From contig JABTTV010000001.1 of the NCBI GenBank assembly GCA_015075725.1, positions 3,461,223 to 3,525,222 on the forward strand: 64,000 nt of DNA, read 5' to 3'. The notes under the pieces were generated by a model. It was given only the letters and a program-made list of their open reading frames with translations, ran no database searches and was not told the DNA's origin. Positions 10,601 through 41,093 of this stretch are shown one piece after another. Within the stretch, counting starts at the first letter, position 1, and every line of letters begins with the position of its first letter. This DNA is from Anaerolineales bacterium (GTDB lineage: Bacteria; Chloroflexota; Anaerolineae; Anaerolineales; Villigracilaceae). A program made the position numbers and the translations under genes.

Positions 10601-10601
10601 A

Positions 10602-15600: not shown

Positions 15601-15929
15601 ATCCGGGCGGAATCCATTTGGTTGTTCAGGGATGTCCAATTGGCACGTTCATCCAAGGTATCCGCCTTGGATACCAGGTCCAGCAATGCCCCGCGCAAAC
15701 GCGATCGCATTTCCCGGGCAGCCTTTTCCGTGAACGTGATTGCCACCACCAGACGTGGGGAAAGCCCATCTGCCAACAAGGACGCGTACCTTGCGACTAG
15801 GGTGCGGGTCTTACCACTGCCAGCTCCGGCGGTTACGATAATATTTTTTCCGCGCTCTAATGCGGATGTACGCTGATCCTTCGTCAAACCAAAGGTGTTG
15901 ACTACCCGTTGTGCTAGAGTCTCAGCCAT
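12642..15929 (-). CDS. addA: AddA-like UvrD helicase-nuclease
   Basis: AGAGSGKT, VDEFQDTN, GDDRQSIYRFR, TIHKSKGLEF and YVAMTRAR motifs, with C-terminal GYIDLL...LDFKTD nuclease. Likely start is MAETLAQ at 15929 (TAATG overlap with the addB stop). Confidence 0.9.
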   Translation of the reverse strand: MAETLAQRVVNTFGLTKDQRTSALERGKNIIVTAGAGSGKTRTLVARYASLLADGLSPRLVVAITFTEKAAREMRSRLRGALLDLVSKADTLDERANWTSLNNQMDSARIGTIHSLCAEILRAHPAEAGVDPRFDVIDEGLAKTLKKQLVETAVIGMVSQTEYRYLFQALGTQGVQDLLATLLDKRLEASEIFASALDGDTIVRSHLEDRFHAPAVMDCIKKLRGFTERQVFDDAGDKLAPQIINLLKEWESAEEAFAKGDIIACTQHLYKARRDYLKKGAGKKGRVKEIHADLQTLYDEFLDPLIGGANSKDEPPSAESEATFKTILPLVEKSFEALHQAYRSELQLRHALDFDDLEYGAMSLLQQDAIRAVWQNEVQALLVDEFQDTNPRQRNIVDALAGTGGRLFVVGDDRQSIYRFRRADVTVFREVQSRARAQGDLVLDLDITYRAHESLLDATGNLLAGVMGTEDRPGQPFYVPFRPLNAHRKAKPDHISDPHIEFILGAGEDAEDARPIAAQALAQRLLKLREEGQIQSWDDVALLFRASTGYTWYEDAFEDAGIPFVTVAGRGFYERPEIRDILNILRALADPADDLAMAGLLRSPAFGLSDSALYLLRHHGEKKSSFWNALREDNSYLNESDQACTRRAVSILNDLLPRVDRESVADLLKELVNAVDYRAVLAIEGESGSSGRLWRNLDKLLADAQSSSLVSVRDFLEYLITLNDAGAREGEAPADAQGAVRLMTIHKSKGLEFPVVILADATRTTMNRSDPVYLLPEMGLSIQIKPEPMLYRLSKQLDDLQNEAESGRLLYVAMTRARDKLIVSGHVSQGRSKIAGWMKELCGILEISPDELLDETGLYSQPKTAQKHPVLVWCSHGQGAQSQTEALTPSALPAEPQAPPLYKPIIDPVQISIEADEETVRRVWRVTEPTLHVPPSVIGQMTHKALELWLHVDDSLLIPLMESLALDAGLATEEQRVEAVRRVRELIERFCAHPLREEIEQADERHHEVPYTRMNGDHTETGYIDLLYRKGDEWFVLDFKTDAIHSEEQYKELVATYSRQLERYASAIKQLFGQDVKLSLCFLDNNGRTHIANQS

Positions 15930-18900: not shown

Positions 18901-18961
18901 CGTCGATACAGGCATTTGTTTTGCCTGTGGCAGGGGCTGAAACAATCAAACGTGTCGGCAT
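15929..18961 (-). CDS. addB: AddB-like helicase-scaffold/PD-(D/E)XK nuclease with Fe-S staple
   Basis: SAPATGKT, GLIDRID...VVDYKTG, and Fe-S cysteines GTCPQ + GGCPEYCPAAQWC; directly upstream of addA. Confidence 0.9.
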   Translation of the reverse strand: MPTRLIVSAPATGKTNACIDDIRVVLEKYPLAKIRVIVPDRLQAAYFRRRLSASGGSIGVYVGTFNDLYKNILEKSGGYVPVASNALLHRIVQDVVDTTPLVHYATLRTQPGFILALQDVFAELKRALIYPETFINSSKGTSLAQQELAQLYVAYQTKLRNMGWADFEGLSWLAVAALEESPNLMENSMQLLVVDGFDSFIGTQRRILQLLEKFTNLLITLPGDVTFSRTAHRRFARTFSSLQKEFSLELLIDSSTNFLPADIAHVESHLFTSIPTSIIKPIQPFLRELRSPAEESREALRWIKSLVIRTAIPLQECAIFAPNLDQYRSYLHSAALEFGMPVHFTQSDSLTTSPAITALLHLLSLPTQNFRTNALFKVLRSPYFSFGLPLETIDSLEQISHIGMVVEGREQWNEIWERLSPSGTSSPFDLDDERTLKKLPHGIAIQALQTHLDDFFQMIAPPEDVRSQTEWTRWLEDLLTNLHFHENSNGEQDEIALEGFREALRALVMSESIVGARVVDYQQYLSDLQNTLAGSALSEPSAPGTSILIGNIREARGLRFKAVAILGLSEGLFPSVERPDPFLPESLREELGLDSRLEREQGSLFYQSVTRADAHLLLTRPYLSEDGELWEASPYWNAVESLFEKNTTVQKIRPDDSRPLTDAASSQELLFWAVRRKGLPQHYADLETRWHQLQHARDVIQSRRAKLADGTYEGATHDLQTELTKRFASEKVWSASRLETYGTCPQMFYVKTVLDLEVTALPSLGLDIAQVGSILHKVLEEVYRTANNPEEVDSVLKRLPEVAKSVFATAPQDFGFRPSELWELEQDQFIAMLETTIVALAKASDGWTPMAYEQAFGIQDTPPLEIELDGEKVLLRGLIDRIDQDAGGNLRVVDYKTGSSHLSKEDLMHGRRLQLPLYALAAKEALKLGEPIEGMYWKIRAAESGSLKLSTFKSETGEGVETAIQTSKEHLTRILKGIRAGDFPPVPPKGGCPEYCPAAQWCWRYQKGGW

Positions 18962-27543: not shown

Positions 27544-27587
27544 TGCAACGTCTAGGGTGCCCCCCTCACCCTGGGCGTTGCATTTTT
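27544..27587 (+). terminator. 16-bp hairpin followed by T5 (plus-strand terminator or REP-like element)
   Basis: TGCAACGTCTAGGGTG-N7-CACCCTGGGCGTTGCA-TTTTT. The two mismatches are G:U pairs only on the + strand. Confidence 0.5.
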
Positions 27588-27612
27588 AATGCGTGATGCT
27601 TGACATGTAACT

Positions 27613-27832
27613 TAACCCATAGTTTCGCCGTTTTGGCAAAACTATGCTTCCAGAATCCTAGTTTTGCAAATGGCACATAGGTGAAAAAGCTATCTCCTCA
27701 GCGCGAATATTGAAAAAGCTCTTCATCGACGATCTGTCCATTAGGCAGATTCAAAGATTTGACTACATTTGCGGTAATTGACTGCAATTTGTGGCGAAAA
27801 CACTAAATAAATTCTGGCAAAACTATGGGTTA
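27613..27832. repeat. 220-bp segment bounded by 17-bp inverted repeats
   Basis: TAACCCATAGTTTCGCC (27613-27629) vs GGCAAAACTATGGGTTA (27816-27832), 16/17 match. A third partial copy GGCAAAACTATG is at 27635-27646. Confidence 0.6.
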
Positions 27833-27946
27833 CGCCACAGCTGTATTAGCAACTTATAAGCTTGGCATTTTGACAAACTTATATTTTCAAACAATTATTG
27901 TCGGGAAAATTGACAACAACCGTATGGTGCAATCCTGGATCAGATT

Positions 27947-28627
27947 TTATTTGACATTCTCTTGGAGGTAGTGTTCCAATTTTGATTGAAAATAGGTCAG
28001 GACTGTTGTCATAATGAGATAGAACATTGCCGCCATGATAAAAAGCTCCAGAGACTTATATGTGGAACTAATTAACAATGTTGTACGATGTAGAAGTTCC
28101 GAGAGGCTGATTGCTGATACTAGTGATGAGTTTTTCAGCATAGCAATAAATTCATTTCCCAAAGGCGGAACCGCAATGCGCAAAGATTGAGGCAATATGA
28201 TATGTTGCATAGCTTTAAGGTCGTTTGCCCCATCAATCCTTGCAGCTTCAATTTGACTTATGTCAATAGCATCGATACTAGCGCGAAATATTTCCGAAAT
28301 GTAGGCCGCACTGTTTAATCCCAATCCAATTATTGCTGATTGTATTTCAGTAAACCTAATTCCTAATTGCGGGAGTCCACTATAGATTATGATAAGTTGG
28401 ACAAGAAGTGGCGTACCGCGAAAAATCCAAATATAGGCTTTGGCAAAATTTTTCAGGATGGAAATTCGAGACGATTGTAACAGTGCAAGAATAAGACCCA
28501 AAAAAACACCAATAAATTGGGAAATGGTTGAAATAAAAAAGGTAATTAGCGCTCCCTGTCCAAGGAAGACATAGAAATCCCATCGCAGAAAAACACTAAA
28601 ATCAAACGGCATAATAATAATTTGCAA
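27947..28627 (-). CDS. Polar amino-acid ABC transporter permease (HisM/GlnP family)
   Basis: FRGTPLLVQL and EAARIDGA (EAA loop) motifs. Confidence 0.9.
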   Translation of the reverse strand: MQIIIMPFDFSVFLRWDFYVFLGQGALITFFISTISQFIGVFLGLILALLQSSRISILKNFAKAYIWIFRGTPLLVQLIIIYSGLPQLGIRFTEIQSAIIGLGLNSAAYISEIFRASIDAIDISQIEAARIDGANDLKAMQHIILPQSLRIAVPPLGNEFIAMLKNSSLVSAISLSELLHRTTLLISSTYKSLELFIMAAMFYLIMTTVLTYFQSKLEHYLQENVK

Positions 28628-28642
28628 GCTGCTTGAATATAA

Positions 28643-29446
28643 CTATTGTTCTACTTTTACAATCCAGTGTGAAAGTATCAGGTCGTAAGTCCCATCACTG
28701 CGCATTTCTGAAAGCGTTTTGTTTATTGCCTCCCGGAGTTTAATGCTGGCTGTATCTTTCCTGAAAGCAAATGCACTTTGGGTTTCTGTCCACGGCCCAG
28801 ATACAACTTTTAAGGCACCACCGCTTTTTTTTATATATTCAGATGCGACAGATAATTCAACGATAATCGCATCTCCGCGCCCTAACTGTAATTCGCGAAA
28901 ACATTCCGAGAGGAGCGAGTATGTTTTTACGTTCTCGGTATATTTCTTGGCCTCTTGCTCTTCAGTCGTTCCAATTGGAACAAGTACTATCCTCCCAGTC
29001 AGATCCTCAGGTTTATGTATATCTGTGTTGTCTGAACGAACTACCAACACATGACCGCTGGTAAAGACAACGTCCGAAAAATCAACGGTGCTTTTCCTTT
29101 CTTCCGTGATGTTCATTTCTGCTGTGATAATGTCGAACCTTTTTGCTTGTAAAGCTGGGATTATGCCTTTCCATTCAATTGTGACGAATTTGACCTCCAG
29201 CCCCAATCTTTCTCCAATCTCGTTCGCCAAATCAACATCTAACCCAACTAACTGTTTGGTATCGGCATCTAAGTATGTATGAGGCGGATAGGCAGCATCA
29301 GCACCAATAGTTAATACACCTGGCTCGACCAAATCGAACTCCGAAAGGGGAGCCTGTTTGGTCTCCGCCATTGACGAACAGGCAGTGATTAAAAATACAA
29401 ATACTAATAAAAAATAACCAATACAAGAGGACAGTTTTCTATTCAT
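28643..29446 (-). CDS. Polar amino-acid-type ABC substrate-binding lipoprotein (SBP_bac_3)
   Basis: Lipobox ITAC; GADAAYPP, GLDVDL and ITEERKSTVDFS motifs. Confidence 0.9.
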   Translation of the reverse strand: MNRKLSSCIGYFLLVFVFLITACSSMAETKQAPLSEFDLVEPGVLTIGADAAYPPHTYLDADTKQLVGLDVDLANEIGERLGLEVKFVTIEWKGIIPALQAKRFDIITAEMNITEERKSTVDFSDVVFTSGHVLVVRSDNTDIHKPEDLTGRIVLVPIGTTEEQEAKKYTENVKTYSLLSECFRELQLGRGDAIIVELSVASEYIKKSGGALKVVSGPWTETQSAFAFRKDTASIKLREAINKTLSEMRSDGTYDLILSHWIVKVEQ

Positions 29447-29460
29447 GAGGCACCTCCAAT

Positions 29461-30621
29461 TTACATTGTGGCTTCAATTATCCCAGGAATTTCATCTATC
29501 TTAGTGGCAATCCTGCTTGCTGAGTAGAGAAGCATCAAATTACGCATGGTAGGGGCACGATCACGCGCATTTGTTTGAATATTTCCAGAGTAATAAAGAA
29601 CCACTTCCTTGTTCAAGGCTTTTGCAGCTCCCTGGATAGCAGCAGTTCCACTGTCAGTTTCAACTGCATCTGCAGATAGTACAAGAACATCAGATGTTAG
29701 TGCCGCGTGAAGATCAATTTCGCCAAGACGATACGGATTTAGGGGAGTCCTCTCAACGCTATGTAGGTTCGATTGATGGTTAGGGTCATGTCGTTTACCA
29801 GTCTGCACAATGAACCCTTTTTTGGTTAACATTCCAGATAGTCGTTTAGTGTAATCTCTACTCCACTCGTACATCCCACCAGCGAAATCAACAAAGATTG
29901 TCCGCCCATTTTTTGGCTTTTTGGGGCTATTACTTTCAATTGACAATGGGTTTATAAAATCGTTCGGCTCTATTGCCATCCTTTTTACACGGTCTCGAAC
30001 CAAACTATATAATTGCTTGTTTGCAGCATTGAGTCTTTCCTCAAAATCAATCGTTACTCTTCTCATTGCATCATAATTGTTATCTTTTGGGAAGGTCATT
30101 TTGGTTCCAGGAAGATCTTTGTAGTGTAATACCTGATTGCACATACGAACTAATATGGGATCAAGAATAAACTCGATTTCTGAATTCGAGATTGATGAAT
30201 AATGAATGAAGTCTGTAACAATTGCTAAGACGGGGACTTTTTTGGCAAAAGCAAATCCAATTTCCATGCAAATTCCGTCATCTTTGCAAGGATCATTAAG
30301 ATAAGACACAAGGGCAAAAAGGCGTTCTAGCCGCTTTATGTCATCCAAATAAATCTCTCTTGCTCTATCTTCCCTTTTTATCGTATTTGCTATTTTTTCG
30401 TTATTTTCGACGGTGTCGCGAAAAGGCATAAATGCCGGAAAACAGGTTAGTGGTATTTGGAGATATTCGGAGGCGTCTGAAAGTCCTGCTAGAATCGCTT
30501 CTTCCAGTTTTATGGTTGCCAGTTTTTCTGTGTAATCATATAAGCGTGTGGCTATATATAAAATCTTTCTACCTGACGCCAAATCTGTAAACGGATGTTG
30601 TTCTGTGTAATTATTCTGCAT
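29461..30621 (-). CDS. Tandem nucleoside 2-deoxyribosyltransferase (NDT/DNPH1-like) domain protein
   Basis: Domain 1: YLDDIKRL...DDGICMEIGFA (catalytic Glu present). Domain 2: IDLHAALTSD...DSGTAAIQGAA (Glu absent). Confidence 0.75.
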   Translation of the reverse strand: MQNNYTEQHPFTDLASGRKILYIATRLYDYTEKLATIKLEEAILAGLSDASEYLQIPLTCFPAFMPFRDTVENNEKIANTIKREDRAREIYLDDIKRLERLFALVSYLNDPCKDDGICMEIGFAFAKKVPVLAIVTDFIHYSSISNSEIEFILDPILVRMCNQVLHYKDLPGTKMTFPKDNNYDAMRRVTIDFEERLNAANKQLYSLVRDRVKRMAIEPNDFINPLSIESNSPKKPKNGRTIFVDFAGGMYEWSRDYTKRLSGMLTKKGFIVQTGKRHDPNHQSNLHSVERTPLNPYRLGEIDLHAALTSDVLVLSADAVETDSGTAAIQGAAKALNKEVVLYYSGNIQTNARDRAPTMRNLMLLYSASRIATKIDEIPGIIEATM

Positions 30622-31471
30622 ATCTCTTCACTCTCGACTGGATCCATGTTGTTCTTTTGTAAATTTCTTCGCTGGATGCATTTGTAATCCGAGAAGCTCC
30701 CCAACCCTCCACGCAGATAGATGCCAAGGCAGATCCAACTGAAAGAGCGGCAACAAGATCTTTGTTTTGACAAAGCATTCCTACGCAACCACCTGCCAGT
30801 ACATCTCCTGCCCCTGTTGGGTCAACTAAGTGAGCCTTATATGCGGGAACATCAAGGATTACGTTGTTGTTTCTATAAACCTGTACCCCACTTTTGTCAT
30901 TCGTAACAATAACAGTTAAATTAGGATGGTCAGAGAATTTTAGCCAATTACTGCACTGGTGATATTCTTCCAAATTCAAGAAAATGTATTTGATGTATGG
31001 CAAAAGCAGTTGAATGGATGCGCGTTTTTTCTCAAGGCTCGACAATGAGACGTCTGTAGAAAAAACAGATGAATTAAAAGTCGTTATAAAATTTTCCGGG
31101 AGTATTGGATCTTTAGAGGTTAAATGCACAACATATGTGCCTTCAGCCAAAGAGGGGGTATCTCTTGGGTCAATTATTTTGGTGTTGAAATTGCTTATTA
31201 TATTTTTTAGTGCCTTTGTATCATCATATCGAAGAGTAAAACGTGTAGTGGACCCTGTTGTGGATTTTAGGTATTTAAGATTTAGTTGCTTCATCTTCGG
31301 CATCGATTCAAAAGGAAAATCAGTCCCTACAATTGCAGCAAGGAAAACTGTGCAGCCTGTAAGGCTTGCTGCATAGGCCATATAGTATCCCGTTCCGCCT
31401 ATGGTTTCCACTTTTTGGCTGCCTATCTCTATGGTGTCTAAAGAGACATTTCCTATGACTAGAAGATCCAT
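30611..31471 (-). CDS. PfkB/ribokinase-family kinase
   Basis: GNVSLD, GGTGYY, AIVGTDF and DPTGAGDVL signatures. Confidence 0.9.
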   Translation of the reverse strand: MDLLVIGNVSLDTIEIGSQKVETIGGTGYYMAYAASLTGCTVFLAAIVGTDFPFESMPKMKQLNLKYLKSTTGSTTRFTLRYDDTKALKNIISNFNTKIIDPRDTPSLAEGTYVVHLTSKDPILPENFITTFNSSVFSTDVSLSSLEKKRASIQLLLPYIKYIFLNLEEYHQCSNWLKFSDHPNLTVIVTNDKSGVQVYRNNNVILDVPAYKAHLVDPTGAGDVLAGGCVGMLCQNKDLVAALSVGSALASICVEGWGASRITNASSEEIYKRTTWIQSRVKRYAE

Positions 31472-31493
31472 GCTACCTCATGGTGTTGTGTTT

Positions 31494-32009
31494 TTAGGTG
31501 GCTATTTTCTTTTGTAACAACGAAACAAGTTCTTCTATTCTCAAGGATGATGCATTTTGAGAAAGGCCACTGTTATAAGTGAAAACTGGAAGATTTTCCC
31601 TGGCGACGGCAATTATCCTTTTATAATTCCTTAATGTTTCTGGAATTAGCGAAATGGGTAAATAATTCTCTTTTTCGCTTGTAAAGCGATCAGTAATTAT
31701 GCTGCGATTTGCAAAACAATAAATAAAACATCCGCCTTGAATCTGAATCATTTTGTTCAGATTGCGGAATTGCGAAATGCTCAGCCTTGAGTGCCCGCGA
31801 ATTAAAGGGCCATACACTAATTCGCTTGGGTAGAAGCGATCTGCTATCGTGGGACGATTTATTGAGCGGATTATATCTACATACTTTTCGAAAAGATTAG
31901 TCTCGACAGATATAGTTGCATGATAGTAGATAAGATCGACACGTGCCGCAAGTGTTTGCGCTAGTGTAGTTTTGCCGGCTTTATCGCATCCCTCCACGAT
32001 TACTATCAT
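31494..32009 (-). CDS. Thymidylate-kinase-like nucleotide monophosphate kinase
   Basis: IVEGCDKAGKTT P-loop and ADRFYPSELVY (DR motif). Confidence 0.8.
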   Translation of the reverse strand: MIVIVEGCDKAGKTTLAQTLAARVDLIYYHATISVETNLFEKYVDIIRSINRPTIADRFYPSELVYGPLIRGHSRLSISQFRNLNKMIQIQGGCFIYCFANRSIITDRFTSEKENYLPISLIPETLRNYKRIIAVARENLPVFTYNSGLSQNASSLRIEELVSLLQKKIAT

Positions 32010-32863
32010 GTTTTTGACTGCATACAGGTGTATTTCATTCGACGAGAAAGTGATGCATCTTTAGCTAGTGGACATTTCGAAGCATCGTGCAAGTTACAAT
32101 ATCTTCTTTTGAAATAGATTAATGTAAGATGTACCCACCATGTGTTTATTTGACCTTCCCTCATTTCTGAGAGTATATCTTGAAAGCCAGTTGCAGAAAG
32201 CAATGTTGAAAAGTCTAGTTTTGATGCAAGAGCTTCTATGTGTTTACGCATTCGCTCGTGCCCGCGTGCATTCTGTTCCGTTTCAAACCCCAGACAAGGC
32301 CCAAGTAAATCTTTCATGCCTGAGTCCACTGGGATAATTCCACATTGGTATCCTCGAATGTATAACGTGCTTCCTTCGGCAACTTTATAACCAACGCCCC
32401 TAATATGTTTTTGAAGAAATTCTATATGCTCATCATTGGATAGATTCTGAAGTTGTGGTGGAACTTCAGAAGTGTTCGGGAACGAATTTGCAAATATCCT
32501 TAATGACTCCCAGAACTTCCAACGACTTTCCGCCAACCCGAGTGGGGTCACAATGCTCATAAACTCCTTACTACTAAGTTTCATAAGACCATCAAAACCG
32601 CGATGTGCCAGATTATCTCGAACATTCTGGAATTTAGAAATGGCATTGTAATTGACTCGTGTGCTTAAACCCGCAAAAAGTATCTTTAATCTCCAATCTG
32701 TAATCTCTGTTGGCCACCATCGATTATTCCAGTAATTGTCCCTGACATCGGTATGTACGTTGGGCATGCTACCAGCAATGGTAAGTATCCGAGAAAGCTC
32801 TGATATCTGAAGAGGTGCTATGTCACTTAGATTGGTTCTATGTGTATTTCCTGTCTTAGGCAT
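32006..32863 (-). CDS. HhH-GPD (endonuclease III-like) DNA glycosylase family protein
   Basis: HhH IRGVGYKVA (Lys), catalytic PVD, and degenerate C-terminal Cys motif YCNLHDASKCPL. Confidence 0.7.
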   Translation of the reverse strand: MPKTGNTHRTNLSDIAPLQISELSRILTIAGSMPNVHTDVRDNYWNNRWWPTEITDWRLKILFAGLSTRVNYNAISKFQNVRDNLAHRGFDGLMKLSSKEFMSIVTPLGLAESRWKFWESLRIFANSFPNTSEVPPQLQNLSNDEHIEFLQKHIRGVGYKVAEGSTLYIRGYQCGIIPVDSGMKDLLGPCLGFETEQNARGHERMRKHIEALASKLDFSTLLSATGFQDILSEMREGQINTWWVHLTLIYFKRRYCNLHDASKCPLAKDASLSRRMKYTCMQSKT

Positions 32864-33204
32864 TTTACCTCGACACTTTTTTCAAATTTCGAACATGTGA
32901 TTTCTGTCTAGAAAATGGTCTTTTGGTATACACTTATTATTCTGCTTACACTAATCCCCACTAAAAGTACTTATTTGCCTGCGTTTTCTGGGTCACTTAT
33001 CAAGTGGCTCAATCCAAGTAGGTAGTATAGTCTCAATTTTCCCATATTGCAATTACATTTATCCAATATAGATACAACCTGAGGGTTTACTTAATTTCTT
33101 AGCTTTGATTTTCAATAAATCGCTATTTCGCTTCTATTTATTTATAGTTATATTGGATAGATTGGTTTTGTAAATTAGCCTTTACAAGGAGAATAGCCCA
33201 CTCC

Positions 33205-33234
33205 TTGACTAAAGAACATTTGTTCTACTATAAT
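33205..33234 (+). promoter_or_regulatory. Sigma70 promoter with LexA (Gram-positive-type SOS) box in the spacer
   Basis: TTGACT (33205-33210)-N18-TATAAT (33229-33234), with GAAC-ATTT-GTTC at 33214-33225. Confidence 0.75.
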
Positions 33235-33241
33235 CCTTTTT

Positions 33242-33767: not shown

Positions 33768-34298
33768 ATGGAAATCCTCCCTGTTCTTAAAATAGGCAAG
33801 CTGATCGTCCTCTACACCCCGGACGCTGCACGCACCGAAAGCATGGTCTTGATCGCTGAACTTGGCTTGCGCGGCGCAGTCACCATCATGGATGGTGGTA
33901 ACCGGTATCGTCCGTATCAGGTTGCTAAATTACTGCGCACGAAAACGGTGGATATTTCAACGGCAGCAAACCGCTTGTTCAGCCGGCGCGCCTTTACCTG
34001 CTATGAGATGAATACCTTGTTGAGTTCCACACCATCCCTGAACCAGCCCTATTTGATCCTGGACTTGTTGAACACATTCTATGACGATCATGTACCAGCC
34101 TATGAAGCGGATCGACTGTTGAAATCCTGCCTGTCTCAGATTCAACGCCTCGGGCTATCCGGACCAGTCGTTGTGACTCTTGCTCCACCTCTGGCAGAGG
34201 AACGCGGTTTTCTGCTTGAGCAGGTCTGCCGACAAGCAGATGAGGTCATCATCAAAGAAGTGCCTATTTGCCAACCCACCCAACCAGCGCTTTTCTGA
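33768..34298 (+). CDS. Inactive RecA/RadA-fold protein (PolB2 accessory, ImuA-analogous)
   Basis: VTIMDGGNRYRPY and SRRAFTCYEM motifs; no Walker A; first gene of the PolB2 trio. Confidence 0.7.
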   Translation: MEILPVLKIGKLIVLYTPDAARTESMVLIAELGLRGAVTIMDGGNRYRPYQVAKLLRTKTVDISTAANRLFSRRAFTCYEMNTLLSSTPSLNQPYLILDLLNTFYDDHVPAYEADRLLKSCLSQIQRLGLSGPVVVTLAPPLAEERGFLLEQVCRQADEVIIKEVPICQPTQPALF

Positions 34299-34307
34299 TC
34301 GAACCAT

Positions 34308-34574
34308 ATGGGTCGCACTCTCGTCACCATCACCCAACTTCTGACAGAAACCGAAGCCAACCTTTCGGCATTTCGGCGTACCTTGCGTCGCAGTGATCAG
34401 TATATCTTCGATGGTCTCTTTGCTGCTGCGCGTCGGCACATCGCTGCCATCGGGCAGGCGGAGTCTCTATTGCCTTTTGAAACCGCCTTGCTTGCCATGT
34501 TATTGGAGCAATCCAAGGAAATCGCGGTGCTTCAGCAGGAACTTGATGAACTGAAAAAGAAAAATCTGGGTTGA
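34308..34574 (+). CDS. Small helical PolB2 accessory protein (arCOG07300-like)
   Basis: MGRT...FRRTLRRSDQYIFD...PFETALLAMLLEQ pattern, characteristic of the small gene preceding PolB2. Confidence 0.75.
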   Translation: MGRTLVTITQLLTETEANLSAFRRTLRRSDQYIFDGLFAAARRHIAAIGQAESLLPFETALLAMLLEQSKEIAVLQQELDELKKKNLG

Positions 34575-34595
34575 CTGGCGGAGCCGTGTCGAAAT

Positions 34596-36776
34596 ATGGC
34601 TGAGGCAATTGGCTGGCTCCTGGATGTATATGCGGAGGAGGATGGAATCACCCTATGGTTGCTGACGGATGATGACAAACGCCTGCACCTGCGTATGGAA
34701 TTTGACATCACGTTTTATGCAGCGGGGGACTTCAATTTATTACGGCAGGCGTGGAAATACCTGAAAGAAAAAGATGTTAAATTGGAACGAACCGTTCGTC
34801 GCGATCTCTTTCTCGGCGAACGGGATGTAATGGCAGTTACTACATCCAATCCAGCCGGTCTTCAAAAAATGTTCGGGGAACTACAAAGGCAATTCCCTTC
34901 CCTCGATTACTACGATGCGGATATTCCCGTCACCCTGCGTTTTATTGCCCGGACAAATACCTATTTGTTGGGGCGCTGCCATGTCAGGTTTGATGAGGAA
35001 TGGATTCAATCCATCGAGCCTTTGTCCTCGCCTTGGGAGATCGACCCTGCGCCCATTCCCCTGCGCATTCTGACTCTCGCACCGGACTGTAATCCTGCGA
35101 TCCGGAAACCCAAACAATTGCATGTGAAATACGGGCAGAGGGAATACAGTCTGTCCCTTGATTCACCCAGACCCTTCCTGATCGGCTTGAAAGCCGACCT
35201 GCAGCGACTTGATCCCGATCTGATCCTGACCGATTACGGTGATACCTGGTTGTTCCCGCAACTTGGTGCATGGTCTGAGGAAACCGGCATTGAGTTGAAT
35301 CCGAATCGTGTTGAGAACAGACAGATCATGACGCGCAAAGCCGATAGCTATTTTGCCTATGGTCAAGTCACTTATCGCGGCGCACAATCCCATCTGTTCG
35401 GACGCTGGCACATTGACCGCAAAAATGCCATGTCTTTTGGGGAATATGGGCTGGAAGGCGCGATGGAACAGGCACGTGTCACAGGCATTGGTGTGCAGGA
35501 GATGGCGCGTAAATCTCCTGGCGCAGGCATCACTGCCATGCAGATGCTGACTGCGTTATGCAACGCAGTCATGGTTCCTGTTCAAAAGCAGCAGGTTGAA
35601 GGGACGAAGACGCTGTCCGAATTGATCCGTGCTGATCATGGCGGCTTGATCTATCAACCCCTCATTGGATTACACGGGAATGTAGCACAGATCGATTTCT
35701 CTTCCATGTATCCTGCGATCATGGTGAAACACAATATCTCCCCGGAAACCGTTGGGCTGGAAAGTGCTCCAGAGGGATTGATACCAAAAACTTTGCGACC
35801 TCTGTTGGAAAAACGCCTAATGCTCAAGAACATCCTCTCCGATCTCGACCCGCGCGATTGTAGAGTCGAAATCCTCAAGGCCCGTGCTGTGGCGCTCAAG
35901 TGGTTGTTGGTCGTGTGCTTTGGGTATTTGGGATACAAGAATGCCCGTTTTGGGAAGATCGAATCCCATGAAGCCGTGACTGCCATGAGCCGCGAACTGA
36001 TGCTGCAAGCCAAGGAGGTGGCAGAGGATATGGGATTCACGATTTTACATATGTATGTGGATTGTTTGTTCGTCCAGCAGGATGGGTTTCACAAGCCATC
36101 AGAATTTACGCCACTTATGAATGCCATCGAAGAGAAAACAGGCATTCCCATTGCATTGGAGGGAGTATTCAAGTGGGTCGCATTCCTGGCTTCGAAGCGG
36201 GATTCACGTGTTCCCGTGCCCAACCAATACTTTGGTGTGTTTCAGGATGGAACGCTCAAGTATCGCGGCATTGAGTTGCGCCGAAAGGATACAACCCTGT
36301 GGGTGAGAAAGATTCAATTGAAGGCGCTGAAAATCTTGGCACATGCAGACACCCCGCGTGAATTTGCCGACCGTGTTCCAGATGTGATGAAGTTGGTGGA
36401 AGATGCAAAACGAGACCTTAGAATTGGACGTGTCCCATTGGATGAGTTGATTGTCCGTCAAAGATTAAGTCGGGCAATTGAAGCATACAAGACTCCATCT
36501 CCAGCTGCACGCGCCGCCCGGCAGTTGCAGTCACACGGCAGGCAGCTTTTCCCCGGTCAATCGATGGAATTCTTGTTTGCTCGTAATCTATCCGGGGTGC
36601 ATGCCGTGGAATTGGGGATACCGACTGATCATCAAAGCATAAACTTCAAACGGTATTTTAGGTTGTTGGATCGAGCCATACAGTCTGTTGTATCATCATG
36701 TGAATCGCCTGGTATCCACGAACAACTATTGTTATGGGATTTTCCAAAGGTGCTCCATTCAAGACTTCCAAAATAA
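34596..36776 (+). CDS. Family B DNA polymerase, archaeal PolB2/Dpo2 (G2)-type, exonuclease degenerate
   Basis: Motif A IDFSSMYPAIM, motif B KWLLVVCFGYLGY, and atypical motif C HMYVDCL instead of YGDTDS. Confidence 0.85.
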   Translation: MAEAIGWLLDVYAEEDGITLWLLTDDDKRLHLRMEFDITFYAAGDFNLLRQAWKYLKEKDVKLERTVRRDLFLGERDVMAVTTSNPAGLQKMFGELQRQFPSLDYYDADIPVTLRFIARTNTYLLGRCHVRFDEEWIQSIEPLSSPWEIDPAPIPLRILTLAPDCNPAIRKPKQLHVKYGQREYSLSLDSPRPFLIGLKADLQRLDPDLILTDYGDTWLFPQLGAWSEETGIELNPNRVENRQIMTRKADSYFAYGQVTYRGAQSHLFGRWHIDRKNAMSFGEYGLEGAMEQARVTGIGVQEMARKSPGAGITAMQMLTALCNAVMVPVQKQQVEGTKTLSELIRADHGGLIYQPLIGLHGNVAQIDFSSMYPAIMVKHNISPETVGLESAPEGLIPKTLRPLLEKRLMLKNILSDLDPRDCRVEILKARAVALKWLLVVCFGYLGYKNARFGKIESHEAVTAMSRELMLQAKEVAEDMGFTILHMYVDCLFVQQDGFHKPSEFTPLMNAIEEKTGIPIALEGVFKWVAFLASKRDSRVPVPNQYFGVFQDGTLKYRGIELRRKDTTLWVRKIQLKALKILAHADTPREFADRVPDVMKLVEDAKRDLRIGRVPLDELIVRQRLSRAIEAYKTPSPAARAARQLQSHGRQLFPGQSMEFLFARNLSGVHAVELGIPTDHQSINFKRYFRLLDRAIQSVVSSCESPGIHEQLLLWDFPKVLHSRLPK

Positions 36777-36849: not shown

Positions 36850-37437
36850 TTGAAGGATACGAATATGGTTAACAATGATTGGAAAAGGTGGCAGGAAAAT
36901 AAACTTCGGGAGCAAAGGATTGGAGAATGGACATCGCGATTTGAAAAAGCCGATGGGAATAGCCGGGAATGGCAAAATGTCTATCGCGCCTATTTGCAAT
37001 CTGATGTTTGGAAAGAAAAGCGCAGGCAGGTCTTGGATCGCGCAAATGGCAAATGTGAAAAGTGCGGGGTAATTTTGTTGGACCCCGACGTGCATCACCT
37101 GACCTATGACAGGGCGGGTGGGAATGAGCGGCTTGATGATTTAATGGTTCTCTGCTTTCCCTGTCATAGAAAGGCAGATAAACAAAGAGATAGAGAAACG
37201 GATGAACGGCGAACAGCCTCATATTATCAAGCAAGGCTGCATGGATTTGCGACCCGGATCTATGGTGATATGTGGTGGTATGAAAAGGACCACGAAGAAG
37301 TCGAAATAGAATTTATTAAATTCCTGTATAAAAAGTATTGTGAAGAATATGGGCTCGAATTTGATCCGCATCTCGACCCAGAAAGCAACATTGATTTCAT
37401 GGAGTTTTGGAATCAGGTTTTAAATGGGGGTGGGTAA
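36850..37437 (+). CDS. HNH endonuclease
   Basis: YLQSDVWKEKR...CEKC...VHHLTY...NERLDDLMVLCFPCH. Confidence 0.85.
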   Translation: MKDTNMVNNDWKRWQENKLREQRIGEWTSRFEKADGNSREWQNVYRAYLQSDVWKEKRRQVLDRANGKCEKCGVILLDPDVHHLTYDRAGGNERLDDLMVLCFPCHRKADKQRDRETDERRTASYYQARLHGFATRIYGDMWWYEKDHEEVEIEFIKFLYKKYCEEYGLEFDPHLDPESNIDFMEFWNQVLNGGG

Positions 37438-37611
37438 TATGGGTAAAATTGTTCTCGTTGGCCAGCATATGGTCACGAAGTCGGTGACAAAACATTATGA
37501 AAGGTATTGACATGTGGATCGGTTTTCCAGTTTCGGAATCATTCCCGTCAGATGAATAACATCATCAGTTCCGGTATTTGTGTGTCAGATAATCAGGTGT
37601 AGCGAATACAT

Positions 37612-38472
37612 ATGAACCATCCATTTCCTCCATCATTCATTACCGCTGAGTCACGCCTTGTAGATGTTTTCCATGATGAGGCTGCCGGTCTTGGCATTGG
37701 CAGATTTGATTCAGAACAATTGTTGAAAAAAATACCCGCATCAGTTAGGTCTACAAAAGCTATAAAGTTTGTGTTCGATCAAGAATGGCGTTACATTTTT
37801 GGTAAGCAATTCCATTTTGATGGAAATTCCCGTGGTTTTGGAGTTCCTCATCAGGCACCGCTAGTCGCAAATCTTGTACGCGCGTCCGCCCTGGCAGATC
37901 GTGTTCTTACTGCTTCGCAGTTCCGGCGTTGGTGGCAACAACTCGACATACCAGCAAAGCACCTCGATGCAATAGTGGAAATGCTGTCTATTTCCAACGT
38001 TGCCCTTGACCACGATCTTGCATATGAGCAAGCAGGGTTGGGAATTGGTTCCCAAAAAATCGACTGGTTACTGAAAACCAAGGAAAAAGGTGGATTTTTG
38101 CTCGAAGTCAAGAATAGACCGGGGCAGATGGCGCGGGAAATGACGAGAAAAAAAGCAACTTCTCCGTCAATGCCAAGCGATCCCATTACGGATTTCCCCG
38201 CTCTCTTCAGAAGCACGACAGGCAAATTCCTTCCCTTGCATGAAACTGAATACACCCAAGGAGTTATACTGTTTCTGGGAATTAAGGTGCCTGCGACTGC
38301 ATTAGATAATTATTTCCGTAATCATCTTCAATCTCATCTTCATTTTATCGCCCTCGGCAAGGAGGATAAAGCAATGGGTATCAGTGTTAATCTTTTTGTA
38401 AAATCCACTGAAATTGCGGACCATGTCCGCTTTGCATTTAGATGGAATGAAGGTGCAGATTTGCTCTATTGA
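37612..38472 (+). CDS. Hypothetical protein, possible PD-(D/E)XK nuclease fold
   Basis: KIDWLL...LLEVKNR D...ExK pattern. Confidence 0.45.
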   Translation: MNHPFPPSFITAESRLVDVFHDEAAGLGIGRFDSEQLLKKIPASVRSTKAIKFVFDQEWRYIFGKQFHFDGNSRGFGVPHQAPLVANLVRASALADRVLTASQFRRWWQQLDIPAKHLDAIVEMLSISNVALDHDLAYEQAGLGIGSQKIDWLLKTKEKGGFLLEVKNRPGQMAREMTRKKATSPSMPSDPITDFPALFRSTTGKFLPLHETEYTQGVILFLGIKVPATALDNYFRNHLQSHLHFIALGKEDKAMGISVNLFVKSTEIADHVRFAFRWNEGADLLY

Positions 38473-38579
38473 AAACAATACTAGCAAAATGCGCATGATA
38501 TTGAAGATTTCGTAACTGAAATTTTCTGCTTTGATGAAGAAGCGTTTTGCTTGTCCATAGATTCTGGTGTATCCGGTGA

Positions 38580-39407
38580 ATGAGACAAATGATGGCAGTG
38601 GAAATTATTGACTTTGATAGTATTGATGAATGGTTCGGGAGTCTTGAGAGCATCCTATATCCTTTAATGACGGATACAGCAAGAAGGGAGCTTGCAGAAT
38701 CAAAGTTGCAGTATATAGAAGATACTCGGGACTTAATGCTTGAACTAACAAATCGCGATGCGACCATAGACGCTGTTTTGGATTGGCTTCGTTCAAAAAG
38801 GTTGATGGCCTATCATGGTACTCGAACGATTGAGCCTGAAGATATTTCAATTTGGGAAAATGGATTGCTTCCACTAAGTGCATCTGCCCGGCATATAAGG
38901 ATCAGCAGGGCGCTAACATCCCATCCAGGATGGCACGAGGTATCACAGCGACTTGGTGAATTACTGCAATCCCACGGACCAGGTAATCGTGAAGGAAAAC
39001 GGGAAGGCCAGGTGCATCTTACACTTTCAATGACCGGGTTGGTTTATGGATTCAATCATTATTTGTCTTACGGCTCTGAATTCGATCAACATGTAGCCCG
39101 AAAGCTTTTGGGGCAAGATGGCATGAAACTTCTTTCGCTTGACGGTGAGCCCAAAGTGGTCAAGGTCGCCGTCCCTGGCGAGGCGGCATTAAAAGCCGCG
39201 CATCCATTTATCAGCATGGATGATATTCGAGCCAGGGGCGATATTCCCAATATTGTTAAAGAGTTTTTGGAGGCATGGAGTTTTAAGTTATCCCATCCCA
39301 AATTTCAATCAGGACAATTAAAGCTCGATTGCGGTATGATTTTTTGGAATGCAATTCCCTCAAATTGGATAGTAGAAATCGAAAGAGTGGATATTCCCAT
39401 CAATTGA
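38580..39407 (+). CDS. Hypothetical protein, possible ADP-ribosyltransferase fold
   Basis: LMAYHGTR, later VHLTLS, and a terminal WIVEIE strand; ART-like spacing judged by eye only. Confidence 0.4.
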   Translation: MRQMMAVEIIDFDSIDEWFGSLESILYPLMTDTARRELAESKLQYIEDTRDLMLELTNRDATIDAVLDWLRSKRLMAYHGTRTIEPEDISIWENGLLPLSASARHIRISRALTSHPGWHEVSQRLGELLQSHGPGNREGKREGQVHLTLSMTGLVYGFNHYLSYGSEFDQHVARKLLGQDGMKLLSLDGEPKVVKVAVPGEAALKAAHPFISMDDIRARGDIPNIVKEFLEAWSFKLSHPKFQSGQLKLDCGMIFWNAIPSNWIVEIERVDIPIN

Positions 39408-39464
39408 CAGGGCTTACCAACAACATATATTTGAAACTACTAAAATTTTATTTGAGAGGCAAAC

Positions 39465-39743
39465 ATGAACATAACATTCGAAATAACGCTGACTGATGAC
39501 GAAAGGGATCCATATACCGCCCGGGAAATCAAACCGGTAAACGACGGAGATGTATGGCGATCATCGCCTCTGGAAGGTCAATTTAAGAGTATGTATAGTG
39601 CGATTGCAAAACTATGTTTTATGAATCTGGAATTGGCGGAAAATACGGAAGAAATATTTTTACTGTTCAAATACTATGCTCGCCTGTATCCAGAGGCGGC
39701 TCAACGGGCAATCGATGCGAGCAATTCTTTTAACAAAGAATAA
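39465..39743 (+). CDS. Hypothetical protein
   Basis: 92-aa ORF with a GAGG RBS; no recognisable motif. Confidence 0.6.
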   Translation: MNITFEITLTDDERDPYTAREIKPVNDGDVWRSSPLEGQFKSMYSAIAKLCFMNLELAENTEEIFLLFKYYARLYPEAAQRAIDASNSFNKE

Positions 39744-39890
39744 TCAAATGTGGAAGTATCTCGTTTTGTTGGATAAAATTTCATATACAAGATGCTCCCA
39801 ACAAAACGAGATACTCTTATTGCCTCAGATCTATTTTGTTCTCCAGTAACCCGATATCAATTATCCCAATGATCATCACAATTGATGTAA

Positions 39891-41093
39891 TTATTGTCCC
39901 GGCCAGCCGATCTGTCCCTGCCCTTCACGCACTGCCCAATAGATGATCCCGCCCCAATTCCAGGAACGCTGATATTGAGGATTGCTGATACTGCCGGCAT
40001 CATCCATGCGTCGCAGGGTTAGGCTGGTATCCCAATAGGCGTCTGGCGTACCATCATTGTTGATATCCGCCATTCTTGCCGCAGGTAGATTTGCCACGGC
40101 GGACGGGGGAATCTCGCCACCGCTTGAATGACTCTTCCATTCATAGCCTGTGATGCCCCGATGTCCGGTTCCGCCGCCGCAGTTGTAATTTCCGTTGCCA
40201 TTCGGACCGGCAAGACAGCCCTCGATGGCTTCATACTCCTGATAACGCAACTCCCAGAACAACTTGTACGGAGCGCGTCCGTTGCCAACGAACAGGGGCA
40301 TGTCCCCAGGCAGTTCATCCAGCCCACTGACACTCCCTGCGAGAGTGGTCGCTCCCACAGCCGGATGGGATGGTACTTCCCATTGAATGGTTTGGCTTGC
40401 GCCATTGGATAACATCAGGTCTCCAACTAGAGGCAGAGTCACAAACATGGGACCAGCAGGTCGCAAGGTCAGGATCAGGCGAAGATTTTGCCAGTCGCCC
40501 ACCTGTGGATGACTGGGCGATCCGCCGCCATTGGGAATATAGTTCACGCCACCTGATCCGGAGGATTCAGGCATACCGCCATTGCGGACAACGGTCGGCC
40601 AACGAACAAGAGTCGCAGGATATGGGCGCACATCCAGATAGATCTCGGGAAATGTGACACGCGCACTTACGTTCCAGCCGTTGTTGGCACAGGTGATACC
40701 GCCAGCCGTCACAGAGAACGATGTACAGGGATGTTGAGGCGGCGTGGTATTGGGCAGTTCACAAGGCATGACTGCCGGCTGCTCGATGATATGCAGAACC
40801 TGCCCGGTACAGTTATCCACCCGGATGGGAAACACCTTGCAGGAACTGCTTTCCGAATAATATTCAACGACTTGGAATGCTAGATGATTGCCGGGTGTGC
40901 AAGCGCCACCGCCATTGTTGTTATTGTTATTTCCACCGCCTTCCTCTCCGCCTCCTTCATTTCCTCCACCTGTGGTGCAAATGATGCTTCCATCCGGTTG
41001 AAAGGAACAGGATGGGGCAGACTGTGCTAGGACGGATAAAGGTTGAACGGAGATCAGGACGATCAGAAGAAGAAATAGACTCGCCCGTTTCAT
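39891..41093 (-). CDS. Secreted Cys/Gly-rich protein (pilus-associated adhesin candidate)
   Basis: Sec signal peptide, paired Cys and poly-G/N linker; end of the flp-tad operon (ATGA overlap). Confidence 0.65.
   Translation of the reverse strand: MKRASLFLLLIVLISVQPLSVLAQSAPSCSFQPDGSIICTTGGGNEGGGEEGGGNNNNNNGGGACTPGNHLAFQVVEYYSESSSCKVFPIRVDNCTGQVLHIIEQPAVMPCELPNTTPPQHPCTSFSVTAGGITCANNGWNVSARVTFPEIYLDVRPYPATLVRWPTVVRNGGMPESSGSGGVNYIPNGGGSPSHPQVGDWQNLRLILTLRPAGPMFVTLPLVGDLMLSNGASQTIQWEVPSHPAVGATTLAGSVSGLDELPGDMPLFVGNGRAPYKLFWELRYQEYEAIEGCLAGPNGNGNYNCGGGTGHRGITGYEWKSHSSGGEIPPSAVANLPAARMADINNDGTPDAYWDTSLTLRRMDDAGSISNPQYQRSWNWGGIIYWAVREGQGQIGWPGQ

Follow-up and report, generated by a model that had tools for sequence, protein, structure and literature searches.

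What would a bacterium, or the mobile DNA that it carries, do with a DNA glycosylase, two kinases, a deoxyribosyltransferase and an amino-acid-type substrate-binding protein and permease packed into one operon? The question is raised by a six-gene cassette in a 64,000-nucleotide stretch of an Anaerolineales genome (assembly GCA_015075725.1, contig JABTTV010000001.1, positions 3,461,223 to 3,525,222), the whole of which is called the window here and to which coordinates refer unless another locus is named. The DNA is chromosomal and belongs to an Anaerolineae bacterium of activated sludge or wastewater; the CopA-like ATPase encoded in the window shares 85-97% identity with those of Anaerolineales metagenome-assembled genomes. 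We find that the cassette is a transporter-fed variant of a widespread and previously undescribed gene-cluster family. As to its function, we tentatively propose that it takes up a base-like precursor, builds a non-canonical deoxynucleotide, which is probably of the pyrimidine type, and polices DNA with a dedicated glycosylase; we regard this proposal as possible rather than probable. An earlier account made from the letters alone, the sequence-only reading, had already described the operon and its gene families, and its claims are taken up where the results bear on them. The six genes, in the order of transcription, are as follows.

g1, 32006 to 32863, minus strand: 285 aa, DNA glycosylase/lyase-like protein belonging to the helix-hairpin-helix (HhH)-GPD superfamily, with an endonuclease III-like fold and a sequence family of its own
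g2, 31494 to 32009, minus strand: 171 aa, thymidylate-kinase (TMK)-like P-loop kinase, whose start overlaps the g1 stop by 4 nt
g3, 30611 to 31471, minus strand: 286 aa, PfkB/ribokinase-family kinase
g4, 29461 to 30621, minus strand: 386 aa, two-domain (tandem) nucleoside 2'-deoxyribosyltransferase (NDT), with a catalytic N-terminal half and a degenerate C-terminal half
g5, 28643 to 29446, minus strand: 267 aa, lipoprotein substrate-binding protein of family 3, polar amino-acid type
g6, 27947 to 28627, minus strand: 226 aa, ATP-binding cassette (ABC) importer permease of the HEQRo/PAAT type

The sequence-only reading spoke of a compact, co-directional six-gene operon richer in AT than its surroundings, and the reading-frame coordinates and composition bear this out. 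From g1 to g6, successive genes overlap by 4 nt, stand 22 nt apart, overlap by 11 nt and then stand 14 and 15 nt apart. The GC content of the cassette is 0.40, against 0.54 in the left flank and 0.49 in the right, and GC at third codon positions (GC3) is 0.34-0.40 across the six genes as opposed to 0.54-0.64 in the adjoining ones. Measured against the copy in a diverged relative of the surrounding element (L001), each of the six shows purifying selection: dN/dS is 0.05-0.13 (0.09 for g5 and 0.06 for g6), and dS is saturated. The cassette is present in at least 20 public sequencing runs; metatranscriptome contigs 99-100% identical to it occur at low depth, where DNA carry-over is possible. Of the family names proposed from sequence, PfkB, NDT (with two matching stretches), substrate-binding protein and permease all score above their Pfam cut-offs, and the nucleoside monophosphate kinase is better described as TMK-like only.

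The glycosylase g1 matches no Pfam family at E ≤ 0.1 and no NCBIfam, PADLOC or PHROG entry, a phmmer search of the PDB returned nothing, and the names given by NCBI and JGI go no further than 'HhH-GDP family DNA glycosylase', 'endonuclease III-like' or 'hypothetical'. None of g1, g4 and the radical SAM partner described below has an equivalog in NCBIfam. The predicted fold, all-helical in two domains with a helix-hairpin-helix, is informative. An AlphaFold2 model built with 31 homologues (pLDDT 91.1, pTM 0.89) has Deinococcus radiodurans EndoIII-1 as its best Foldseek match in the PDB (E 4e-5), followed by MagIII, MIG, MutY and Ogg, and the top 50 PDB entries are nearly all HhH-GPD glycosylases, ROS1 among them, at probability 1.0 and TM-scores (TMt) of up to 0.72. 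PF00730 is matched at E ≤ 0.1 by 20 of 31 relatives, and a relative in L011 scores 27.0 bits, where the cut-off is 26.2, so that the earlier call of an HhH-GPD glycosylase holds through the fold and the relatives. The HhH motif reads G-V/A-G-Y-K-V-A...G-Y-x-C-G-I-I-P-V-D-S-G. When the family profile is aligned with human NTHL1 (E 0.075), D180, invariant in 31 sequences, falls on the catalytic Asp of 'VDT', and K160, at least 90% conserved, falls on the catalytic Lys of 'GVGPKMA'; W49, W50 and W242 are invariant in the same 31 sequences. Because K160 and D180 fall on the catalytic Lys and Asp, g1 is a probable bifunctional glycosylase/lyase of its own family. No NCBIfam model, PDB sequence search or profile places it within endonuclease III (Nth) proper, and the Cys-X6-Cys-X2-Cys-X5-Cys spacing of the endonuclease III [4Fe-4S] cluster is absent. 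In its place stand C256-X7-C264-X15-C280 plus C174, of which only C264 is invariant and C174 nearly so, a different pattern that makes metal binding possible. The family is rare: 63 protein clusters were found among 5.8 billion, and relatives occur in 169 GTDB species.

The deoxyribosyltransferase g4 is more readily placed. PF05014 (Nuc_deoxyrib_tr) is matched at 57.2 bits (cut-off 28.8, E 2.3e-15) in two stretches, and the AlphaFold2 model (pLDDT 88.7) consists of two alpha/beta halves. Its best Foldseek matches are the NDTs of C. thermalis (CtNDT) and D. psychrophila (DpNDT), at E 1e-5 and TMt 0.67-0.76; DNPH1, MilB and BcmB follow at E 8e-4 to 1e-3, under the true NDTs. The sequence-only reading had grouped the enzyme with NDT, DNPH1 and MilB alike, and by these ranks the NDT fold stands and the closer resemblance is to the transferases. 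In the N-terminal half Y22, D94, D114 and E120 (of 'CMEIG') are invariant, and E120 aligns with the 'SEIG' Glu of 7m5h. In the C-terminal half the equivalent of that Glu is Q330, a variable position, and E321, N361 and M363 are invariant. Since only the N-terminal half keeps the nucleophile and the C-terminal half keeps other invariant residues, the sequence and the model suggest a fused pseudo-dimer with one active site, in which the C-terminal half would stand in for the partner subunit. Invariant R26, R97 and R277 could bind phosphate. This family, too, is rare, with 25 protein clusters among 5.8 billion.

The two kinases differ in how far they can be named. For g2, PF02223 gives 19.4 bits, below the cut-off of 27, and TIGR00041 gives 22.3 bits against 83.25; the protein matches PHROG 761 'thymidylate kinase' at 2.3e-12, and its best PDB relative is YorR of SPbeta (2axp, 6e-5). 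Across its family the P-loop residues G7, G12 and K13 are invariant, and the TMK-type pair D57-R58, followed by F, is invariant or nearly so. Judged on these residues and scores, g2 is described here as TMK-like and nothing narrower. The PfkB match of g3 is secure (PF00294, 77.7 bits against a cut-off of 25.8, 1.3e-21), and its translation carries the motifs DPTGAGD, NLEE and GG. The best NCBIfam models are ribokinase, ribose-1-phosphate kinases and a nucleoside kinase, and the best PDB entries are 3kd6 and the nucleoside kinase MJ0406; because all the NCBIfam scores are far under the equivalog cut-offs, we name no substrate for it.

The last two genes encode a substrate-binding protein and a permease. 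The product of g5 matches SBP_bac_3 (133.7 bits, 4e-39) and carries the lipobox LITAC. That of g6 matches BPD_transp_1 (82 bits, 6e-23) and the HEQRo model TIGR01726 (97.6 against a cut-off of 42.2); its closest models are cystine, ectoine and glutamine permeases, all under the equivalog cut-offs. An ectoine-like substrate came to mind, as the permease resembles EhuC/D and an Amdase-like partner found in sister clusters resembles EutA. This idea is kept as speculation only because the best matches of the transporter are cystine, arginine and glutamine systems. No ABC ATPase follows the permease here or in any of the four other loci that carry all six genes (L001-L003 and L090).

A neighbourhood search had been suggested as a check on whether the gene set recurs, and it does. 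All six genes occur as a unit in L001-L003, which share one backbone, and in a third lineage (L090), where they have a GC content of 51% and are followed by a tyrosine recombinase. Two backbones other than that of the window thus carry the set, and the six genes form one mobile operon. Beyond these close copies, 80 genome loci were fetched from relatives of g1 in the 169 species. A string of g1-type glycosylase, TMK-like kinase and PfkB kinase is conserved in 68 of them, across Bacillota, Patescibacteria, Alphaproteobacteria, Chloroflexota, Bacteroidota and Actinomycetota. These strings also hold a radical S-adenosylmethionine (SAM) protein of about 500 aa, an Amdase/EutA-like protein and a MazG-like pyrophosphatase, and their PfkB protein is often fused to an AAA_33 kinase. 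Further additions follow lineage: Bacilli-type loci carry an NT5C-like deoxynucleotidase, those of Alphaproteobacteria Ham1 and a HAD fusion, and those of Actinomycetota an NsdA-like regulator together with the same two-domain NDT. Proteins of about 440 aa in which the HhH glycosylase is fused to the kinase occur in Chloroflexota, Bacteroidota, Patescibacteria and other groups. The suggested enrichment in defence islands is moderate and mixed only. A tyrosine or serine recombinase lies within 10 kb in 19 of the 68 multi-gene loci, and some clusters are on plasmids or beside nSTAND, UvrD or toxin genes; others lie beside housekeeping genes such as pyruvate phosphate dikinase. One solitary g1 relative (47% identity; L091, 6803-8789) lies directly downstream of a Druantia-type DruA gene and a gene for a 1799-aa DEAD/MZB helicase.

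A second census was taken from the tandem NDT. Among 30 loci, those that appear partnerless being mostly contigs too short to show a partner, a TMK-like kinase is in the same gene string in 21, and a glycosylase-fold partner is likewise found in 21. The glycosylase comes from three unrelated families, namely the g1 family (HhH_A), AGOG-like HhH proteins and the uracil-DNA glycosylase (UDG) superfamily. The AGOG-like partner carries FRGxGxK and PVDxHD motifs, matches PF09171 (E 5e-4 for the first member scanned) and has EndoIII and AGOG at the top of its PDB profile search. Between these proteins (292 and 273 aa) and the g1 family hhalign detects no homology; they are treated as independent recruits of the superfamily. 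The UDG-superfamily partner matches PF03167 (best 8e-25), and in two loci it is fused to the transferase in a 520-aa protein (L114, 5538-7100; L115, 7210-8772) with the NDT in residues 1-315 and the UDG in 331-518; the fused UDG domain is 67% identical to a separate UDG-like gene that comes straight after the NDT in L113. A class-I SAM methyltransferase is inserted in 8 of the 30 loci, two loci (L110 and L111) add a YjjX-type inosine triphosphatase, and in L092 the module directly follows a DUF8156-PolB pair like that of the window. One locus (L094) holds a YfbR-like HD nucleotidase, NDT, deoxynucleoside kinase (dNK), AGOG-like protein, NCS1 nucleobase permease and also a second TMK-like kinase; base import, NDT, dNK and TMK there make up a complete route. 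Taken together, the constant core of the family is a glycosylase-fold protein with a TMK-like kinase, to which PfkB and/or the tandem NDT are the usual companions, and the NDT and deoxynucleoside monophosphate (dNMP) kinase keep company with some DNA glycosylase regardless of its fold. Two smaller observations belong here. In L093 (38-5597) a PP-loop ATPase (ATP_bind_3/DUF7411), a small single-domain NDT-like protein and two proteins of 596 and 187 aa without an assigned family precede the tandem NDT; this is possibly one more variant, in which another enzyme would modify the base. In phage M6 (L095, 8833-9339) gp48 is found upstream of the thymidine hypermodification genes, a few genes away; a link between it and the UDG-like partner appeared in an iterated search only, was weak in pairwise comparison (E 0.044) and was not used.

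How might such a set of proteins work together? Under the proposal made at the outset, the substrate-binding protein and permease would bring in a base-like or amino-acid-like precursor with the help of a borrowed ABC ATPase, and the NDT would put the base on deoxyribose by exchange, through a covalent intermediate on Glu120. The PfkB kinase would then form the 5'-monophosphate and the TMK-like kinase the diphosphate, which host nucleoside diphosphate kinase would convert to the triphosphate. A DNA polymerase would use this product, possibly the element's own PolB, whose gene starts 1.7 kb from the cassette. Finally, the endonuclease III-like glycosylase/lyase would remove the wrong base, be it an intermediate, an unmodified base or a misplaced one. 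In sister clusters putative base-tailoring enzymes, either the radical SAM and Amdase-like proteins or the SAM methyltransferase, take the place of the transporter, and enzymes that may clean the nucleotide pool (MazG, Ham1, YjjX, NT5C and HD) are added. The pattern of partners, fusions, tailoring enzymes, pyrophosphatases and importer fits one unusual deoxynucleotide that matters at the DNA level, and fits a general supply of deoxynucleoside triphosphates (dNTPs) poorly. The pairing of a kinase with a nucleoside triphosphate (NTP) pyrophosphatase resembles phage pre-replicative modification, as in T4 gp42/gp1/gp56 and PurZ/MazZ/DatZ. A pathway centred on one non-canonical nucleoside was also the idea of the sequence-only reading, and recurrence, fusions and glycosylase swaps make this the part best supported by comparative genomics; the functions that it listed for the pathway are mutually exclusive.

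Several observations weigh against this proposal. For a DNA-modification toolkit it is odd that profiles of g1 and g4 found nothing in IMG/VR and that tblastn found no g1 relative in 50,697 phage records (INPHARED). Many clusters are chromosomal, lack PolB and lie beside housekeeping genes. The glycosylase does not need the pathway, as g1-type genes stand alone in 12 of the 80 genome loci and several close relatives of the window's g1 also occur alone. A strand-cleaving Lys/Asp glycosylase is risky for self DNA, and the fusion of a DNA enzyme to enzymes of free nucleotides is not accounted for. On the side of import, g5 has the look of an ordinary amino-acid binder, with Lys/Arg/Orn, cystine, Gln and Arg binders as its nearest NCBIfam and PDB relatives, and no LSGGQ motif of a cognate ABC ATPase occurs in any frame of the whole window.

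Comparison with known systems helps to place the cassette. It would work most like the phage pre-replicative pathways (T4 gp42/gp1/gp56 for 5-hydroxymethylcytosine, the 5-hydroxymethyluracil phages, and PurZ/MazZ/DatZ for 2-aminoadenine) and partly like the NDT/dNK salvage of Lactobacillus, and it belongs to neither. With the phage pathways it shares a dNMP kinase, the NTP pyrophosphatases or nucleotidases of sister clusters and the base modifiers, as well as a position near a private DNA polymerase on a mobile element. It differs in that entry would be by base import and NDT exchange and not by ThyA- or PurA-like modification of a dNMP, and in that a DNA glycosylase is a constant member with no phage homologue found. 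A phage origin was rejected, as PHROGs match only the kinase, NDT and PfkB, and these generically, and g1 and g4 are missing from the phage collections searched. Lactobacillus-type salvage shares an NDT with a conserved Glu followed by kinases, and g4 is nearest the canonical NDTs; here, in contrast, the NDT is a putative fused pseudo-dimer with a degenerate second half, the kinases are PfkB and TMK-like instead of dNK, and the set is linked to a glycosylase, a transporter and mobility.

The thymidine hypermodification clusters deserve a closer look since the sequence-only reading had noted that the HhH fold extends to phage transferases of that kind. These clusters contain the 5-HMUDK kinase, aGPT-Pplase/amino-acid:DNA transferase, a radical-SAM isomerase and a pyridoxal phosphate-dependent decarboxylase (PMC8989533, PMC5889632). 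The likeness, which holds for the wider family, lies in a P-loop kinase, an HhH-fold protein, radical SAM and a decarboxylase-like enzyme, in kinase-HhH fusions on both sides and, in the window's version, in an amino-acid-type importer. However, g1 keeps the Lys and Asp of a glycosylase, and the cassette has no hydroxymethylase or TET/JBP gene. The homology test failed: the aGPT-Pplase Pfam models are matched by none of 31 g1 relatives, hhalign gives the g1 family a probability of 0.4% against M6 gp51, g2 aligns with gp54 over 17 residues of the P-loop only, gp53 has no match, and g1 reaches only E of about 1 against amino-acid:DNA transferases in BFVD. Membership in this group was rejected on the Pfam and M6 comparisons.

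Other systems share single traits with the cassette. The defence glycosylases Dag1-17 (HhH) and Brig1/Brig2 (UDG) have similar folds, and g1 may share their Lys-Asp pair with aromatic stacking and their bifunctional chemistry; an AT-rich mobile setting and single-gene relatives beside defence systems are further common traits. The catalytic and stacking residues of Dag1 are K118, D184 and W188 (bioRxiv 10.1101/2025.10.29.685425), for which K160, D180 and the invariant Trp residues of g1 are candidate counterparts. They are single-gene systems, whereas the glycosylase here is translationally coupled or fused to a kinase in a nucleoside-activating operon, and four g1-family NCBI accessions are not among the rows listed from Table S4 of the Dag study. 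The Dpd islands for 7-deazaguanine, with the transglycosylase DpdA, likewise pair the supply of a modified base with a DNA N-glycosidic enzyme in a genomic island, but the folds are different, and homologues of TGT/DpdA, QueC, QueD and QueE and an identified restriction component are lacking in the cassette. DNPH1, MilB and BcmB share the NDT-fold superfamily and rank under the true transferases for g4. Identity with a known defence system was rejected, as PADLOC-DB 2.0 returned P-loop-level noise for g2 only (PDC-M51B, E 6e-4; VakA, 5e-3). The earlier statement that the cassette matches no named system is supported: no PADLOC model, no NCBIfam equivalog and, in full-text literature searches, no published description of the cluster was found.

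The main rival is anti-phage defence. In such an account, the glycosylase would attack modified phage DNA, the NDT would serve as an N-glycosidase and the remaining enzymes would deplete or redirect a phage's pool of modified nucleotides; we consider this rather unlikely. HhH and UDG defence glycosylases with a Lys-Asp pair and a stacking Trp that destroy modified phage DNA are experimentally established (bioRxiv 10.1101/2025.10.29.685425; PMC11078745), and g1, whose best structural match is D. radiodurans EndoIII, has K160/D180 and the invariant W49, W50 and W242. The swapping of the glycosylase among HhH, AGOG-like and UDG folds also points to folds used in defence, and the genomic company is suggestive. 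A solo relative directly follows Druantia genes, and UvrD, an nSTAND NTPase, SymE and a recombinase are neighbours of one cluster (L008/L009). There are pPIWI-RE and BrxC/D-DEAD-TerB islands in the window itself, and the cassette combines AT-richness with mobility and polymorphism. Recombinases are near 19 of the 68 multi-gene loci, and the family is not found in the phage collections searched. Yet g1, g3-g6, the radical SAM, Amdase and MazG proteins have no PADLOC match, two or three kinases and an importer suit the synthesis of nucleotides rather than their depletion, and g4 is nearer to transferases than to the DNPH1/MilB hydrolases. Moreover, many loci lie amid housekeeping genes in small-genome bacteria, the family's Streptomyces accessions are not among the listed rows of the Dag homologue table, and the radical SAM, Amdase and methyltransferase partners would have no role. 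An ordinary auxiliary metabolism is an unlikely explanation in our view. It would be a Lactobacillus-type salvage that boosts canonical dNTPs for the element's PolB; in it, and we give this the same small chance, the NDT would balance bases, the kinases would make dNMPs and deoxynucleoside diphosphates, and a base excision repair glycosylase and an unrelated amino-acid importer would hitch-hike. PolB and DUF8156 do lie beside the module in the window, L001 and L092, genes for NDT, TMK and glycosylases are common auxiliaries of large PolB viruses (bioRxiv 10.1101/2025.02.15.638363), the closest relatives of the kinase are phage TMK/YorR-type genes, and canonical NDTs are the nearest to g4. On the other side, the four enzyme families are rare, divergent and almost confined to these clusters, with g1 and g2 under Pfam cut-offs, and the fusions, the radical SAM, Amdase and methyltransferase partners and the pyrophosphatases for non-canonical NTPs point to a special substrate. 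Most clusters lack PolB, and in L090 the transporter has travelled with the other four genes into a different backbone.

It is also conceivable, if very unlikely, that the enzymes act on DNA directly, the excised base being captured by the NDT and re-activated, or the gap being refilled from dNTPs made by the cassette. That a modified base is installed or recycled in this way after replication is given just as little weight. The fusions of glycosylase folds to the kinase (about 440 aa) and to the NDT (520 aa) suggest a hand-over, the covalent deoxyribosyl-enzyme intermediate of NDTs suits base exchange (E120 is conserved), and a lyase-type site such as K160/D180 would leave a gap for resynthesis. 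The idea is purely inferential, as no such mechanism is known; direct exchange needs no TMK-like kinase, and solo glycosylase relatives occur. Production of a toxic nucleoside analogue, or coping with one, is highly unlikely: the cluster would then serve a natural product or detoxification, and the glycosylase would confer self-resistance by clearing the analogue from the producer's DNA. Glycosylases with a self-resistance role are known from genotoxin clusters. In favour of this account, the actinomycete version (NsdA-like, radical SAM, Amdase, HhH, PfkB, NDT, kinase and MazG) is conserved among Streptomyces and their relatives (more than 25) as well as on linear plasmids, and alphaproteobacterial loci adjoin a C39-ABC exporter and HlyD. 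But most clusters lack an exporter or a typical tailoring set, the account does not suit the tiny-genome carriers among Patescibacteria, Mycoplasmatota-like bacteria and gut Bacilli, in which the family is frequent, and the window's version imports and does not export. A bolder reading is a long shot: the glycosylase-fold protein, pseudo-dimeric NDT and TMK-like kinase would constitute a cellular machinery of a new kind that inserts or recovers a non-canonical DNA base. It would excise and then repair from a private dNTP pool, or hand the base over to the NDT, and mobile elements would mark or protect their own DNA with it; this is no more probable than the machinery itself. An equally slim chance attaches to the source of the precursor, which radical-SAM/Amdase or methyltransferase modules would make in some lineages and which would be imported in wastewater Anaerolineae.

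What would follow depends on which account holds. Were a non-canonical deoxynucleotide being made and policed, bacteria and non-phage mobile elements would have a dedicated route to it by base exchange, one that is not built on the dNMP-modifying enzymes of phages and has a DNA glycosylase as an obligatory partner. DNA-modification biology would then extend beyond phages and the Dpd and Dnd islands, and new enzymes for modified nucleotides would come to hand in the form of a single-chain NDT and kinases for unusual dNMPs. Were defence the answer, this would be the first multi-gene system to couple a defence glycosylase to enzymes of the nucleotide pool. In either case, three unrelated glycosylase folds beside the same NDT-kinase pair form a testable comparative-genomic signal, of which no published description was found in the literature searched. 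A cultured carrier, Streptomyces cattleya, whose cluster runs from radical SAM to MazG at about 2,962,000-2,967,800 of CP003219, and natural variants with and without the cassette in one sludge sample make the question testable.

The evidence for those variants lies at the borders of the cassette, where the following non-coding features are found.

27599 to 27604: left copy of the direct repeat CTTGAC, read from the sequence
27605 to 27946: non-coding 3' end of the segment, containing an inverted repeat of 24 nt that is imperfect (27606-27629 / 27816-27839)
32864 to 33203, minus strand: AT-rich 5' non-coding leader, with a promoter-like site at 33052-33024
33204 to 33209: right copy of CTTGAC, which overlaps the -35 element of the promoter-like site of the GerE gene (33205-33234)

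The sequence-only reading held that the cassette had been inserted, and into a transfer region. Insertion is supported by a presence/absence polymorphism, as contigs from DNA runs X1, X6 and X12 and RNA runs X25 and X27 join 27588/27606 straight to 33204/33241, with short fillers at the joins and a segment of about 5.6 kb absent. The left boundary is set at the junction where the cassette-less contigs join, 27606, which is also where the 24-nt inverted repeat begins; CTTGAC brackets the segment and is single in the cassette-less contigs. In run X1 the joined, cassette-less form has a depth of 781 compared with 721 for the cassette-bearing contig. Two distinct empty-site junctions occur in public data, with fillers GCTCCTAATG and AAGAACATTTGTTCTGTTATTATCCCAGCAG and flanks 90-98% identical to the window (27588-33241); several cassette-less element lineages thus share the same plants with the cassette-bearing one. 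The history of the cassette is not a simple recent insertion, because the diverged relative L001 (backbone 54-82% amino-acid identity) carries it at the same site with 59-83% identity and 40% GC, and the same six genes are found elsewhere in L090. The transfer region is not borne out. The neighbours are a gene for an A24 prepilin-peptidase-like protein and unknown membrane proteins on one side and the GerE regulator and the PolB module on the other, and no VirB4, coupling protein or relaxase was seen among them.

The leader gives no clue to the ligand. The number of promoter-like sites in it is not above chance in a promoter scan. Rfam has no match in this region of the window and none at the gathering score in 8 related loci, and the leaders of three cassettes (the window, L001 and L090) have no conserved block in common; a riboswitch or leader RNA that would name the ligand was rejected on these grounds. 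Just outside the left junction (27544-27582) lies a strong hairpin with a 16-bp stem followed by a T run. In cassette-less variants this hairpin would adjoin, on the upstream side, the promoter-like site of the GerE gene (33205-33234, TTGACT-18-TATAAT).

The wider element has several features of its own. A conserved replication module (window 33768-36776; L001 5994-8879; L092 4394-7794) is made up of a small DUF8156 protein and, after it, a family-B DNA polymerase, a module which is preceded by a 176-aa protein or a Rad51/RecA-like protein and which in these three otherwise different elements adjoins the nucleoside module each time. The mobile-element-like stretch in the window also holds a pPIWI-RE island, a DEAD helicase/BrxC/D/TerB trio, AddAB and a serine recombinase. 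The pPIWI-RE island (875-7000) is a three-gene island and another of low GC (GC3 0.39-0.43); it encodes a protein of 1150 aa that has pPIWI_RE_Z and an nSTAND-like region, and one of 390 aa that has pPIWI_RE_Y together with the associated restriction endonuclease. Its further reading frames are

5395 to 5991: open reading frame of the pPIWI-RE island
6107 to 7000: open reading frame of the pPIWI-RE island

and are followed at 7045-12470 by a co-directional trio that looks like a defence-type set, with a 739-aa DEAD/ResIII helicase, a 444-aa ATPase of the BrxC/BrxD family (PF10923, E 3e-153) and a 622-aa TerB_N/TerB_C protein. AddA/AddB-like helicase-nucleases come after it at 12642-18961. A second low-GC stretch (36850-39900, GC3 0.39-0.45) contains an HNH endonuclease-like reading frame and two reading frames of 286 and 275 aa without any Pfam match. 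Farther along are a 654-aa protein with a DnaA_N domain only (52993-54957) and a large serine recombinase (59374-61074), which possibly serve to replicate and integrate an element that borders the host-like segment at 40-57 kb.

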